Assembly (NCBI RefSeq): GCF_041248615.1
Contig: NZ_CP158426.1
Strand: one strand, 5' to 3'
Origin: Escherichia coli
GTDB lineage: Bacteria > Pseudomonadota > Gammaproteobacteria > Enterobacterales > Enterobacteriaceae
DNA length: 64,000 nt
The first letter of the stretch is position 1. Each line of letters begins with the position of its first letter. The position numbers were made by a program, and so were the translations under genes. The notes under the pieces are model-generated. The model was given only the letters and a program-made list of their open reading frames with translations, searched no databases and was not told the DNA's origin. Positions 40,367 through 51,351 of the stretch are shown here, piece after piece.

Positions 40367-41095
40367 TCACGACTTCGTGACATATCCGCGCTCATCACAA
40401 ACCCGCCCCGCGATTACAATTGACTGAAATATTTCATCGACCATTTCGTTGTACTCGCGTAACGCTCGCGGAAATGAGTCGTCGACCATCCAGCTTGTGT
40501 TTGCATCCTGAAGTTGCTCTTTATCCCAGTCAGAGTACGGAACTTTATCTCTGACGCGGCGAACATATTTTTTAGCCTCGAGTTGATACTGGTCTGCCGA
40601 ATTAATGAACGAGAAATTCATACCGCCTTTATCCGCTTCTTTGGCCTGCGCCACCAGCGTTTCCAGTTCAGAGACTTTCTTCATTGCCGCATCAACATCA
40701 AACTTCTCTTGCGATATCAGGTTATTAATTTGTTTCGCTGAAATCATGACTGCCAGAGAATAGTAGTGGAATGTTTTCCCTTCTCTTTCTTCAATATTTT
40801 TCAGTTCCGCAAGCTGACGCTTATCATTAATTTCCTGGATCGCCGCATGATAAGATTCGGCTACAGGTTCAAAGGCGTCCAGATTTTTTAAGAATGTCTG
40901 GTGCAGCGTTTTCCCTTTCGCAAACGCATCGTCTTTATAATTTTCCTGGGTGTAATATTTATCCATTTCGTTAATGGTATTACCCAACGCCACGGCAGCA
41001 TCAATATAACTCACCGCCACGCCATCAATAGGTTGCAGCGCAGGCGTTAACGCTACTACACGCGTTTTGTTTATAAATAAAATAATAAAATTCAC
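40367..41095 (-). CDS. yiiG: YiiG-like protein (assigned by synteny downstream of fdhD); possibly shortened relative to K-12
   Basis: 242-aa ORF starting 49 bp after the fdhD stop with no signal peptide or lipobox at this N-terminus. Identity rests on position only; the K-12 protein is remembered as longer. Confidence 0.5.
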   Translation of the reverse strand: MNFIILFINKTRVVALTPALQPIDGVAVSYIDAAVALGNTINEMDKYYTQENYKDDAFAKGKTLHQTFLKNLDAFEPVAESYHAAIQEINDKRQLAELKNIEEREGKTFHYYSLAVMISAKQINNLISQEKFDVDAAMKKVSELETLVAQAKEADKGGMNFSFINSADQYQLEAKKYVRRVRDKVPYSDWDKEQLQDANTSWMVDDSFPRALREYNEMVDEIFQSIVIAGRVCDERGYVTKS

Positions 41096-47876: not shown

Positions 47877-48095
47877 TTACCATTCCTCGCGCAGCTTACG
47901 CTGGTATTCGACACCATCTTCCTCACTCCCTTGCCAGATGCCAAAAGCACTGGCTCTTGCTGTTTGCGATTGATTTACCAGGTATTGATCTACCGCTTCC
48001 CGTAATAGCTCCGCACGAGGAAGATTATGCTGCACCTCGAGATCATCAAGTTGCTTAAACAACTCATTCGATAAATTGAGTAAAATTCTGCCCAT
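47877..48095 (-). CDS. yiiF: Ribbon-helix-helix (CopG/antitoxin-like) small protein YiiF
   Basis: 72 aa from the ATG at 48095: [42 protein letters not shown]...; RHH pattern. Confidence 0.75.
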
Positions 48096-48337
48096 ATCTA
48101 TACCTGCCAGAGAGTTCATAAATATCTCGCCCATATCATTTTTGAATCTATGGAGAGAAAAGTACCCTTGTCGAATCTTTAAAGAAAGCGTATTTACGCA
48201 TCACTTTTTATTTTTGCGAGGCGTTTTCCAGATATGATGTAACAGTTGCAGTTATTATAAGTTCAAGTAAAACAGCCTTGTATTAATACCAGAATAAGGG
48301 CATCTGTTTTTTTATATTCAAGAATGAAAAATTTTTG

Positions 48338-48556
48338 TCATTCCTTATGCTCCTTACACTGATCATCAACACCAACTACCTCCCCCTTTTGCCTGCCTCC
48401 CTTTGCTTTACGCACCGGGAATTGCTGACGTTCCAGATATTGCTCTACCGCTTCGCGTAAAATTGCAGATCGTGAAACCTTACGCCAGCCCCTAAGCTTG
48501 TTCAGCCGTTTAATTGCCTCTTCTGATAAATGAAGAAAAACCGTATTCATCGCCAT
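48338..48556 (-). CDS. yiiE: Ribbon-helix-helix (CopG/antitoxin-like) small protein YiiE, paralog of YiiF
   Basis: 72 aa from the ATG at 48556: MAMNTVFLHLSEEAIKRLNKLRGWRKVSRSAILREAVEQYLERQ... Confidence 0.75.
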   Translation of the reverse strand: MAMNTVFLHLSEEAIKRLNKLRGWRKVSRSAILREAVEQYLERQQFPVRKAKGGRQKGEVVGVDDQCKEHKE

Positions 48557-48974
48557 TACCACCACCTTACATATATTACTCATTAATGTATGTGCGAAAA
48601 TTACGCCGAAAAATCATTTAAAAAAAGCGGATTTTTGCATGTCGTTTTGTTTTTGCGAGACGGCATCCAAAGATAATGTAACAGTTGCAGTTATTTCAAT
48701 TGTTACTCAAAAATGGTTTAGTAATAACCCAGGATGGTTTATTACTTTTAATTAAGCGGGGACACATCTACAGAAAAGAAACAACAAATAATAAGAATGA
48801 ATTATGGGTGCTATAAATATTTTATATTCAAGAATATTTTTTTGATTGGGTGTTCATTTGCTTCATCAGGATGGTGTACCCGAAAAAGTCAGCAGCTTTA
48901 CCGCACCAGGGTTTAAGGTGAAATCTACCATTCATAACTGACCGGTCAGTGCCGCACCAACCGGTCTTTAATTG

Positions 48975-49253
48975 TTAGTAGTAGTAAATTTGTGGATAAC
49001 AGTCCGGGAACCAGACGATTCCTTCTGGATCATCCCCCTGCATTACCCGATGACATTGGCGTCGATCATCTGCGCGACGGCGAAGCGTAGTATAGAGCCG
49101 CTTCCATTCATGATCGCCCGGTGTACTGTAGTTTACCCAACAATCCATTGAAGGGTGACGCCATTTACCTGTAAGTGTTGGGATCCCTGAATGATTATGT
49201 GGCTTCGCTTTACCATTACGATCCCTATCTTTACGCGTATTAAGCGTGGACAT
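48975..49253 (-). CDS. Hypothetical small basic His/Cys-containing protein (92 aa)
   Basis: ATG at 49253 preceded by CAGGAGACTAAAA (SD 8 nt upstream). MSTLNTRKDRDRNGKAKPHNHSGIPTLTGKWRHPSMDCWVNY...; no family recognised. Confidence 0.45.
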   Translation of the reverse strand: MSTLNTRKDRDRNGKAKPHNHSGIPTLTGKWRHPSMDCWVNYSTPGDHEWKRLYTTLRRRADDRRQCHRVMQGDDPEGIVWFPDCYPQIYYY

Positions 49254-49314
49254 TTTTAGTCTCCTGTTAAGAGTTCTAAAAATGTGCTTCCTTAAAATAG
49301 TTCATCATTTTCCC

Positions 49315-49527
49315 TTAATTCGCATAGCGTGCTTTTGCACGAATTTCCGATACGCGGGGACCATCATGATAGCGTCGATGCCCACACATCCAACAAGAAC
49401 AAATACAGGGAGTACGAAAGCAAATACCTGATGCTTTTTTGCTTCCATCGCCTGCAGTGCGATAACGGCAGCGGATTTTTTTTAATCGCGCCATATGATG
49501 GCGACGTTCAGCACGATTACGGGTCAT
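49315..49527 (-). CDS. Hypothetical small basic Cys-rich protein (70 aa)
   Basis: ATG at 49527 preceded by TCAGGAGTTTTACT (SD supplied by the R1 repeat hairpin). MTRNRAERRHHMARLKKIRCRYRTAGDGSKKASGICFRTPCICSCWMCGH...; no family recognised. Confidence 0.45.
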   Translation of the reverse strand: MTRNRAERRHHMARLKKIRCRYRTAGDGSKKASGICFRTPCICSCWMCGHRRYHDGPRVSEIRAKARYAN

Positions 49528-49532
49528 AGTAA

Positions 49533-49636
49533 AACTCCTGAGCAGGCGGCACTATGCCGCTTTCATAGGAGTTCTGAATGCTGGTGCTTTCTGTATGGCA
49601 TAACCATGCCTCTAACGGTTAAGTGCCTGCAGCACA
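49533..49636. repeat. ~104-bp repeat R1 (nested hairpin), direct copy of R2
   Basis: AACTCCTGAGCAGGCGGCACTATGCCGCTTTCATAGGAGTT... with outer stem AACTCCT/AGGAGTT and inner GCGGCA/TGCCGC; overlaps the 3' end of the antitoxin gene; ~85% identical to 51350..51453. Confidence 0.8.
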
Positions 49637-49902
49637 TGTTGCGGATCATTGGCAATCGCTCGCAGCAAAGCCTTTGCAGGCCCAGTCGGTGAACGTCGCC
49701 CCTGCTCCCAGTTACGCAACGTGTCTACGCTTACGGAAATAAGTTCGGCAAATTTAGATTGTGACAACCCTGAAGCGCGGCGTATTTCTTTGATTTTCAT
49801 AGCATCAACTTCAAAAGTCCGTGAAGGGTGTCGCGTTCCTTCAATAATTTCATTCATCTGGGCCATGCTGTGAGTCAACCGCTCAAAAAGTGCCTTATCC
49901 AT
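49612..49902 (-). CDS. HTH-XRE antitoxin (HigA-like), second gene of a toxin-first TA operon
   Basis: 96 aa; SD GAGGTGG upstream; start abuts the toxin stop. HTH segment IKEIRRASGLSQSKFAELISVSVDTLRNWEQGRRSPTGPAKALL. Confidence 0.8.
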   Translation of the reverse strand: MDKALFERLTHSMAQMNEIIEGTRHPSRTFEVDAMKIKEIRRASGLSQSKFAELISVSVDTLRNWEQGRRSPTGPAKALLRAIANDPQHVLQALNR

Positions 49903-50214
49903 TTACCACCTCGTATTTAACAACCGGAGCATTGCTTTTTCCTGGGGAGACAGATCATCTTTAATACCCTTACGATAAATAAGCAGTAATCTGATCTCAT
50001 AATGTTTAACCTGATGAAAGTAAATAACCCTGACACCAGCACGTTTCCCCTTTCCTCCTGACACCCATCGAACCTTTCTTAACCCACCAGTTTCAGGTAT
50101 TACCTCACCATAGTCAGGATTCAAGGCCAGGAAAAACTGAAAACGACTGAATTCATCGTCGGTCAGCAGTTTTTGAACATCTTCAGTAAAAATTTCCGTT
50201 TCGATGAAGAGCAT
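49903..50214 (-). CDS. RelE/ParE-superfamily toxin (HigB-like)
   Basis: 103 aa, MLFIETEIFTEDVQKLLTDDEFSRFQFFLALNPDYGEVIPETGGLRKVRWVSGGKGKRAGVRVIYFH...; resembles HigB-type toxins as recalled from memory. TATAAT sits immediately upstream of the ATG. Confidence 0.75.
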   Translation of the reverse strand: MLFIETEIFTEDVQKLLTDDEFSRFQFFLALNPDYGEVIPETGGLRKVRWVSGGKGKRAGVRVIYFHQVKHYEIRLLLIYRKGIKDDLSPQEKAMLRLLNTRW

Positions 50215-50430
50215 AATTATACGCCATTGGCTTAGAGTAACAATCCTTTTTGTACGTCATTGACGTACCCTTGAAACCACTAGCTTACTGATAGTGCTCC
50301 AGCAAAACCACGTCTCTGCCGGGTTTGTCTTTACATTTGCGAGGCGCTTTCCAGATTTTTCACGCCCGTGAATTTCCCTGTATCCATCCAGCAAAAACGG
50401 GTGTATAAAACTGTACATTCATACAGCAAA

Positions 50431-51351
50431 ATGAGTTCTACTATGGCACTGGAAAAAGGAATTGCAGAGTTAGTCGAAGAGTTTATCGCTGCGGGTCGCC
50501 CCTCATCGCGTCAACAAAGTATTGCGCAGCGCAGGGAGGGCTATATCGCCAGCGCTGTCCTTGCGGGTGAGACAGAAACGCGGGTAGATATTCAGACTAT
50601 CGAACTTGAAGGGATGATCTTACGAATAGTGTCACCGCTGAATGCCCCGACATTACTCCCGACGATAATTTATTACTACGGTGGCTGTTTTGTTAGCGGC
50701 GGGTTCGCAACTCACGACAACCAGCTGCGCCAGTTAGCCTATTACGGGCAATGTCGGGTTATTGCCGTCCAGTATCGGCTGGCACCGGAACAGACTTTCC
50801 CCGCCGCCCATGATGATGCGCAACGAGGTGCAGAATTAGTCTGGCAACACGCCGAACGACTCGGCGTTGATAAACAACGGATAACTCTTGCCGGTGACAG
50901 TGCGGGCGGACATCTGGCGCTGGTAACTGCTTTGCGATTAAAGCGTGCTGGCGAGTGGCAACCGGCACAACTCATCTTAATTTATCCCATGCTTGATGCG
51001 ACTGCGCATTTCGAAAGCTACATACGCAATGGTCACGATTACATCATCACACGCGACACTTTACTGAGCGGCTTTGAGATGTATCTGCCAGGCATTGAAC
51101 GCAGGCATCCTGAAGCCAGCCCTCTTTGGCGCGATGATTTCAATGGCTTGCCACCTGTACATATCATTACCGCTGAATACGACCCACTTTGCGATGAAGG
51201 TGAAGCGTTGTATCACCGCATGACAGGGCAAGGAGTGCAATGCACCTGCCAACGCTACCTTGGCGTTATCCACGGATTTTTTCAGTTAGGTGGTATCAGT
51301 GAGGCTGCGCGATCGGCGCTGCGGGATGTGGCCTGGAGAGCGGGAAGGTAA
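50431..51351 (+). CDS. Alpha/beta-hydrolase-fold esterase/lipase (HSL/Aes-like)
   Basis: Oxyanion-hole region YYYGGCFVSGG, nucleophile elbow GDSAGG, downstream catalytic Asp/His candidates. Start ambiguous: GTG 50368, ATG 50431 or ATG 50443, none with a clear SD. Confidence 0.7.
   Translation: MSSTMALEKGIAELVEEFIAAGRPSSRQQSIAQRREGYIASAVLAGETETRVDIQTIELEGMILRIVSPLNAPTLLPTIIYYYGGCFVSGGFATHDNQLRQLAYYGQCRVIAVQYRLAPEQTFPAAHDDAQRGAELVWQHAERLGVDKQRITLAGDSAGGHLALVTALRLKRAGEWQPAQLILIYPMLDATAHFESYIRNGHDYIITRDTLLSGFEMYLPGIERRHPEASPLWRDDFNGLPPVHIITAEYDPLCDEGEALYHRMTGQGVQCTCQRYLGVIHGFFQLGGISEAARSALRDVAWRAGR

Follow-up and report, generated by a model that had tools for sequence, protein, structure and literature searches.

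We consider it highly probable that two abutting genes located between fabY and fdhE on the chromosome of Escherichia coli form a type II toxin–antitoxin module of the HigBA2 type, which functions like its homologue from Vibrio cholerae. According to this model the 103-aa toxin would be a RelE-fold, ribosome-dependent mRNA endonuclease that enters the A site and cuts mRNA by means of R49, R62, Y80 and K82, and the 96-aa antitoxin would bind the toxin through its N-terminal segment and thereby block it. Its HTH-XRE domain would dimerise and bind two operator-like palindromes, O1 and O2, on either side of the promoter, leading to self-repression of the operon. What this model says on toxicity, neutralisation, cleavage of RNA and binding of DNA is extrapolated from the characterised V. 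cholerae homologue, and no experimental study of the E. coli pair was found in the literature searched. An entry ‘Toxin HigB-2 / Antitoxin HigA-2’ based on automatic annotation has been listed among strain-variable E. coli genes (PMC10304320) and might possibly be identical with the present locus. As a side observation that may bear on this entry, we found only one copy of the pair per genome.

The window, by which we mean the whole 64-kb stretch of DNA that was analysed, is E. coli chromosome, and 1.1 kb of it is 100% identical to many strains. The gene order is fdhE, yiiF, yiiE, a 92-aa ORF, a 70-aa ORF, antitoxin, toxin, an alpha/beta-hydrolase gene, a 614-aa ORF and fabY, with the hydrolase gene being transcribed divergently from the toxin–antitoxin pair. 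The pair itself shows the following features:

49903–50214, minus strand: toxin gene, HigB-2 type (RelE/ParE superfamily), 103 aa, PGAP WP_000897305.1.
49612–49902, minus strand: antitoxin gene, HigA-2/NadS type, 96 aa, PGAP WP_000356395.1.
49906–49912, minus strand: Shine-Dalgarno sequence GAGGTGG of the antitoxin, within the last toxin codons, as read from the sequence.
49531–49575, minus strand: stable hairpin followed by UUUU, 37–81 nt past the antitoxin stop (inverted repeat I1).

The original prediction had described two abutting minus-strand genes of 103 and 96 aa, and both ORFs were found at exactly these positions. Likewise, the toxin stop TAA (49905–49903) directly precedes the antitoxin ATG (49902–49900), giving an uninterrupted TAA-ATG in the sequence, and the ORF positions confirm that the toxin lies upstream of the antitoxin in the inverted, higBA-like order. 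Such a bicistronic, toxin-first arrangement with the antitoxin immediately downstream is that of HigBA2-type systems, and the junction AGGTGGTA(A/G)ATG is maintained in Salmonella. The toxin ATG has no Shine-Dalgarno sequence comparable to the GAGGTGG of the antitoxin, a difference that, together with the abutting start, would favour an excess of antitoxin. The hairpin past the antitoxin gene (RNA fold −30.5 kcal/mol, z = −3.5) contains the AGGAG Shine-Dalgarno sequence of the next ORF and was not called by a terminator scan; it may act as a weak terminator of the pair. An Rfam scan of positions 48500–51000 gave nothing meaningful.

Searching the PDB with the toxin, whose sequence contains GGLRKVRW...GKGKRAGVRVIYF, revealed V. 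cholerae HigB-2 (phmmer, E 1.5e-19, residues 2–99, ungapped), to which it is 43% identical over the full length. An AlphaFold (AF2) model built from 14 homologues (pLDDT 83) was compared with known structures using Foldseek, and the best matches were the HigB2 entries 8a0x, 5ja8 and 5ja9 (TM 0.79–0.85, rmsd 1.6–3.4 Å), followed by RelE chains (TM 0.5–0.56). The assignment to the RelE/ParE superfamily made in the original prediction is thus well founded. K-12 HigB matched poorly (TM ~0.3 for 5ifg/6kml), and for 5ifg, 6kml and 5ycl together TM values of 0.27–0.47 with E values of at least 0.4 were obtained. No match was found in Pfam to PF05015 (Rts1 HigB) or PF09907 (K-12 HigB/YgjN), and with these results membership in the classical HigBA group was rejected. 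The toxin therefore belongs with V. cholerae HigB-2, in the lineage of Pfam PF06296, and not with HigB of Rts1/P. vulgaris or with HigB (YgjN) of K-12. Of the label ‘HigBA-like’ that had been proposed, the kinship with HigBA stands, but the wording is too loose and ‘HigBA2-type’ fits.

On the level of profiles, the RelE/ParE side yielded a weak match to PF06296 (E 0.0062, 17.2 bits, residues 43–101) and none to any NCBIfam model. Some relatives that are 70% identical carry a precomputed PF06296 match, and the toxin also matches phrog_5869 (E 6e-27). The weak PF06296 score and the lack of an NCBIfam toxin model account for the name ‘hypothetical protein’ that the intact toxin WP_000897305.1 bears in most genomes in RefSeq.

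In the ungapped alignment R49, R62, Y80 and K82 of the toxin coincide with R51, R64, Y82 and K84 of VcHigB2, and all four are invariant in the 14 homologues, down to an identity of 42%. VcHigB2 cuts mRNA on the ribosome with an active site near-identical to that of E. coli RelE, and exchange of any of R51, R64, Y82 or K84 against alanine lowered its inhibition of translation 170- to 3000-fold (PMC5416850).

The XRE-type HTH that had been predicted for the antitoxin was recovered with Pfam HTH_3 (E 1.9e-9, residues 37–74) and with HigA-2 from the PDB (E 7.9e-9, residues 5–89). The antitoxin also matches phrog_2104 (E 1.6e-25) and, with 60.4 bits at a cut-off of 60 and hence barely, the NCBIfam NadS equivalog NF041265. 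Its predicted layout is that of HigBA2 antitoxins: the N-terminal segment would bind the toxin, and the HTH-XRE domain at the C-terminus would serve dimerisation and DNA binding. The N-terminal segment MDxxLFxxL is conserved in the alignment, and in V. cholerae the N-terminal peptide of the antitoxin neutralises the toxin by itself (PMC5416850). As both proteins match the cognate chains of one solved toxin–antitoxin complex, a chance pairing can be excluded.

On plasmids of Pseudomonas, Acinetobacter, Aeromonas and Pantoea, the gene directly downstream of the toxin relative likewise encodes a ‘NadS family protein’, showing that ‘NadS’ is a pipeline name for antitoxins of the HigA-2 type. Nothing relevant to the origin of this name was found in the literature searched. 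A PIRT-Seq paper mentions ‘nadS’ in BW25113 (RS26030), and this gene is absent both from the supplements of that paper and from the fabY–fdhE locus of K-12. In genomes without the locus no DNA-level similarity to the pair of at least roughly 65–70% was detected.

The region upstream of the toxin gene contains two palindromes and two promoter candidates:

50253–50267, minus strand: distal operator-like palindrome O1, TACGTCA-A-TGACGTA.
50220–50234, minus strand: proximal operator-like palindrome O2, TAAGCCA-A-TGGCGTA, motif TAMGYCANTGRCGTA.
50234–50260, minus strand: promoter candidate P1, −35 ATGACG (50260–50255, within O1), 15 nt, −10 TACTCT (50239–50234).
50216–50243, minus strand: promoter candidate P2, TTGTTA (50243–50238), 16 nt, TATAAT (50221–50216).

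As in V. cholerae HigBA2, palindromes are found at the promoter, with O1 being GGTACGTCAATGACGTACA and O2 being TCTAAGCCAATGGCGTATA. O1 forms the core of a perfect 8-1-8 inverted repeat (50252–50268; GTACGTCA-A-TGACGTAC). The second site O2 was found by comparing the upstream regions of relatives, and it shares two bases with the start of the TATAAT hexamer. The 15-bp motif TAMGYCA-N-TGRCGTA describing both sites occurs only at O1 and O2 in the window, with 0 sites expected, and it is present upstream of the toxin in five other cases, namely Enterobacter, Salmonella and plasmids of Pantoea, Pseudomonas and Acinetobacter, each representing another genus. An equivalent of O2 is located at the same place in Enterobacter, in one Salmonella lineage and in the Pantoea and Pseudomonas plasmids, and the equivalent of O1 is conserved in Enterobacter, Salmonella and the Pantoea plasmid. 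The Pseudomonas plasmid has the proximal site only, and the Acinetobacter plasmid carries a single copy in proximal position, ~30 nt before its ATG. The motif is absent from the K-12 loci, and relatives whose recognition helix has diverged (Aeromonas, Pantoea L015) show different palindromes.

For V. cholerae HigA2 the operator TGTACGC(N5)GCGTACA, lying between the −35 and over the −10 element, has been determined by footprint and crystal structure (PMC11006873). O1 has the same GTACG(N7)CGTAC frame, and the base-contacting residues R68, E71, N72 and R77 of VcHigA2 correspond to D60, R63, N64 and R69 here, with N64 and R69 being kept. From the conservation of the motif, the shared frame and the two retained residues we infer that O1 and O2 are bound by an antitoxin dimer, with repression of the operon as the outcome; judged from these sequence features, both palindromes are very probably autorepression sites.

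P2 matches the consensus at 10 of 12 positions and is the sole such site between 49200 and 50600. Its spacer holds O2, a layout that resembles V. cholerae. The TATAAT hexamer had been noticed before and had been taken as a sign of a short or leaderless transcript. The hexamer is real, but it is separated from the toxin ATG at 50214 by one base only (T, 50215). In the standard sigma-70 geometry, transcription normally begins ~7 nt past the end of the −10 hexamer. By this geometry the start from P2 would lie at ~50209, past the ATG and ~5 nt inside the toxin ORF, and a leaderless toxin mRNA from TATAAT was therefore rejected. In addition, P2 is conserved in Enterobacter but not in Salmonella, where the hexamer reads TAGGGA or TATGGA. 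What survives of the earlier claim is the short transcript leader, which is plausible via P1: a start at ~50227–50228 would give a ~13-nt leader without a Shine-Dalgarno sequence. According to the alignment and the upstream sequences P1 matches the consensus poorly in E. coli (4/6 and 3/6, spacer of 15 nt) and is better conserved across genera than P2, with the equivalents TTGACG-16-TACTCT in Enterobacter, TTGACG-16-TACTAT in Salmonella and TTGACG-16-TAAACT in Pantoea. The ATG at 50214 is the genuine toxin start, since this codon and those after it are conserved, and an indel separates the genera in the sequence immediately before it.

The pair had also been described as absent from this locus in K-12, which is confirmed by the annotation of MG1655 and BW25113 and by blastn. 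Both strains show the arrangement fabY-[853 bp]-yiiE-yiiF-fdhE without toxin–antitoxin genes, with breakpoints at window positions 53270 and ~48736–49000. The missing part is:

49000–53270, no strand: segment present here and deleted in K-12, ~4.3 kb, from blastn of K-12 against the window, the alignment and the K-12 annotation.

It comprises the 92-aa and 70-aa ORFs, the toxin–antitoxin pair, the alpha/beta-hydrolase gene and the 614-aa ORF except for its first ~31 codons. As precisely these ~31 codons are kept in K-12, where PGAP annotates them as a pseudogene, the absence in K-12 is the result of a deletion. Among 5426 complete E. coli genomes about half (2636) carry the pair as a single copy with at least 95% identity, and 1995 show the K-12-type junction.

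Beyond E. coli, homologues are found in Enterobacter and Salmonella in an identical setting, fabY-(hydrolase)-toxin-antitoxin-fdhE, with identities of 68–71% for the toxin and 83–87% for the antitoxin. Comparison of E. coli with either genus gave pN values of 0.17–0.19 for the toxin and 0.09–0.12 for the antitoxin at pS ~0.66–0.78, indicating from these sequence comparisons that both genes are under purifying selection. Synonymous differences of the pair are saturated (pS ~0.76) compared to 0.47–0.49 for the adjacent fdhE, and for this reason long residence looks the same as repeated exchange at the fabY–fdhE site. Plasmids often carry more distant relatives (893 PLSDB records); phages rarely do, with 9 records in the phage collection, at least 5 of them genuine phage or viral-metagenome sequences.

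The stronger conservation of the antitoxin raises the question of a partly domesticated module, in which the NadS-type antitoxin would be retained chiefly for transcriptional control, with a toxin that is weak or, under certain conditions, harmless. That three genera have both the site and the hydrolase neighbour in common would also be unusual if the element were purely selfish. Moreover, in Salmonella (L004) and Enterobacter (L008) the toxin is intact while the antitoxin next to it is split or has a damaged (frameshifted) N-terminus, and one E. coli genome (H65) keeps the toxin half without the antitoxin half, suggesting that the toxin may be tolerable in some backgrounds. Nevertheless, we regard this explanation as improbable. 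All four catalytic residues are invariant and the toxin ORF itself is under purifying selection, a split antitoxin could still neutralise as the N-terminal peptide suffices in V. cholerae (PMC5416850), and a few E. coli carriers have disrupted toxins, either by an IS1 insertion (H26) or as length-changing alleles (H30, H63, H64), as would be expected of a costly toxin.

We would give only a slim chance to a more elaborate scenario of a long-resident, partly domesticated HigBA2 module, in which P2 makes antitoxin-only transcripts, P1 makes a short-leader toxin mRNA without a Shine-Dalgarno sequence and the hydrolase gene is controlled together with the pair. If true, the P2 start inside the toxin ORF would give a toxin-first operon an inherent means of keeping its antitoxin in excess. 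The hydrolase gene carries a conserved LexA-like box at 50411–50426, located in the same 228-bp divergent region as the control sites of the pair. Should the hydrolase gene be co-controlled, this box would tie the module to DNA damage.

Family membership does not guarantee the mechanism either, because the HigB-like SehA of Salmonella, a predicted RNase, has been reported to inhibit RNase III and to be without RNase activity (PMC12817084). By this precedent the E. coli toxin could use its RelE fold to inhibit another protein instead of cutting mRNA on the ribosome. We think this very unlikely, as SehA is of a different family (SehB with 142 aa is 46% identical to K-12 HigA; PMC7160566) and was reported to lack the canonical active-site residues (PMC12817084), whereas the toxin studied here keeps the full VcHigB2/RelE-like active site and among its relatives of known structure the nearest is a proven ribosome-dependent mRNase. 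Equally hard to credit is a selected role in abortive-infection phage defence with the same biochemistry, as opposed to one in locus stabilisation or the stress response. In its favour, relatives of both proteins are encoded by phages (phrog_5869, phrog_2104 and the phage-collection records), plasmid relatives are common and RelE/ParE toxins have been discussed as defence toxins (PMC11980606). Against it, the toxin matched no PADLOC model, and the genes around the pair are of housekeeping or unknown function and do not form a defence island.

Returning to the HigBA2 assignment, V. cholerae HigB-2/HigA-2 (VcHigBA2; PDB 5JA8, 5JA9, 5JAA, 8A0W, 8A0X) shares with the E. coli pair the toxin-first order, the toxin fold, the four active-site residues, the operator frame and an antitoxin built from an N-terminal region for toxin binding and a C-terminal HTH-XRE domain. 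It differs in having one operator between −35 and −10 instead of two predicted operators flanking the promoter, in two of the four base-contacting residues (D60 and R63 here) and in an antitoxin N-terminus that is ~8 residues longer than that of E. coli. Furthermore, it resides in a superintegron cassette, whereas the E. coli pair occupies a conserved enterobacterial chromosomal site.

K-12 HigBA (YgjN/YgjM) and HigBA of Proteus vulgaris Rts1 also have the toxin first, a RelE-superfamily toxin and an HTH antitoxin. Their toxins, however, belong to the subfamilies PF09907 and PF05015 with a poor fold match (TM ~0.3), and their antitoxins, of 138 aa in K-12, are longer and differ in domain layout. 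E. coli RelBE resembles the pair in the RelE fold (Foldseek TM 0.5–0.56) and in the Arg/Lys/Tyr active site of RelE (PMC5416850). It was rejected as the matching system, since the gene order is reversed, with the antitoxin first, and the antitoxin found here is of the HTH-XRE type, whereas RelB is of the ribbon-helix-helix type and contacts the toxin with its C-terminus; the identity is only ~10–12%.

Salmonella SehAB (STM4031/STM4030.S) is likewise an enterobacterial chromosomal toxin-first module. It was rejected as an orthologue at the same site, because SehB, a member of the YgjNM family (PMC7160566), represents a different family from the 96-aa antitoxin. The HTH region of the antitoxin also matches models of the MqsA family, PRK10072 and Atu1735, and thus resembles MqsA and the NWEQGRR-type XRE antitoxins (YiaG, Atu1735/2PPX), but the scores stay below the curated cut-offs (40.2 vs 61.8 bits; 35.7 vs 110). 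An MqsRA system was rejected, as the match to TIGR03830 (40.2 bits) covers the HTH part only (profile positions 64–123), the zinc-binding N-terminal domain of MqsA is missing and the partner toxin is not MqsR. HigBA2Ab of A. baumannii was rejected as a relative despite its name, since its own paper describes a GP49-domain toxin with little similarity to V. cholerae HigB. The Acinetobacter plasmid matches mentioned above are RelE/ParE plus NadS pairs and separate from HigBA2Ab.

In summary, this E. coli pair is a so far uncharacterised representative of the known HigBA2 family and ordinary in kind, as this family is already well characterised in V. cholerae both structurally and biochemically. 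It adds one more RelE-superfamily module to the accessory set of E. coli and brings to light a small annotation gap, with the intact toxin being named ‘hypothetical protein’ and the antitoxin uninformatively ‘NadS’ in RefSeq. K-12, in which most of the toxin–antitoxin biology of E. coli has been worked out, is a natural null host for the pair. Modest new details are the predicted two-operator layout, the deletion origin of the absence in K-12 and the fabY–fdhE position common to three genera. Without challenging the current understanding, these details are of use to the study of HigBA2 regulation and of toxin–antitoxin evolution.

The antitoxin of the HigBA2-type pair varies among related fabY-fdhE loci, as seen in two Salmonella records (L004, L009) and one Enterobacter-type record (L008), each of which keeps an intact toxin:

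L004 4313-4345, Salmonella antitoxin, 4-bp deletion that frameshifts the N-terminus
L008 4313-4622, Enterobacter-type antitoxin, duplication of about 19 bp
L009 1813-1849, Salmonella antitoxin, full 96-aa ORF open

The deletion in L004 leaves an 84-aa product starting at M13, and with the duplication in L008 the antitoxin is broken into two ORFs, one for an N-terminal peptide and one for the HTH part. For L009 an internal start is annotated in the record, though the 96-aa ORF is open.

Next to the pair lies a divergent hydrolase gene, with a palindrome in front of it:

50443-51351 (+), alpha/beta-hydrolase of the hormone-sensitive-lipase/esterase family
50411-50426, LexA-box-like palindrome CTGTACATTCATACAG (CTGT-N8-ACAG), just upstream of the hydrolase start

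The best NCBIfam match of the hydrolase is LipP1, with 235 bits being below the cut-off of 350. Its position next to the pair is constant in E. coli and Enterobacter and is also found in one Salmonella record (L009); Salmonella L004 retains the gene only as a pseudogene remnant, and L008 has lost it by deletion. On the plus strand, TATAAA stands ahead of the palindrome, whose CTGT-N8-ACAG core is common to E. coli, Enterobacter and Salmonella, with diverging flanks. The box alone is not significant in the window, as two matches were observed versus 0.78 expected. It points to possible SOS regulation of the hydrolase, the gene divergent from the toxin.

Beyond the hydrolase an intact large ORF is present:

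51520-53364 (-), 614-aa ORF

Searches of its sequence against Pfam, NCBIfam, PHROG, PADLOC and PDB gave no match. It possesses a CX5R-type motif, GCKSAKDRT, which is similar to the signature of the SopB/IpgD phosphoinositide phosphatases. Between strains in which the toxin-antitoxin pair is 100% identical this ORF is 96.8% identical, and in K-12 only its first ~31 codons remain. In strain A10 PGAP annotates it as two pieces, a 'transposase' and a partial 'hypothetical protein', but no internal stop was found and the ORF is uninterrupted despite this split.

Downstream of the antitoxin two small, basic and Cys-rich ORFs were identified, neither being present at the Enterobacter and Salmonella loci:

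49315-49527 (-), 70-aa ORF
48975-49253 (-), 92-aa ORF

The 70-aa ORF has a PHROG match, phrog_4499 (E 1.2e-13; function unknown), and its AGGAG Shine-Dalgarno sequence is buried in a stable hairpin. No match was obtained for the 92-aa ORF. Further along on the same strand follow two paralogues:

48338-48583 (-), yiiE, CopG/ribbon-helix-helix gene
47877-48134 (-), yiiF, CopG/ribbon-helix-helix gene

In the alignment of the K-12 locus with the window (A1), a near-repeat of one upstream sequence (…TTTTTGCGAGGCGTTTTCCAGA…AACAGTTGCAGTTATT…) precedes both of them. According to blastn the window also lacks ~473 bp of K-12 sequence at ~41049-41053, which take in the spacer between fdhD and yiiG together with the first ~417 nt of the yiiG gene, and similarity to K-12 stops at 40434, slightly before the yiiG 3' end on the K-12 frvR side.

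The naming of the toxin in RefSeq/PGAP is inconsistent, as NCBIfam holds no model for it: the intact toxin is called 'hypothetical protein', and the name 'type II toxin-antitoxin system RelE/ParE family toxin' is given to copies that carry an IS1 insertion or a length-changing allele. For K-12 BW25113 (NZ_CP009273) a PGAP-annotated 'nadS' (RS26030), which is not in EcoCyc, has been described as expressed in the laboratory (PMC12350097). NadS is the NCBIfam family (NF041265) matched by the HigA-2-type antitoxin of the pair. This K-12 'nadS' was not found at the fabY-fdhE locus of K-12, and no DNA similarity to the pair of roughly 65-70% or more was detected elsewhere. Thus, K-12 probably holds a distant NadS-type paralogue.
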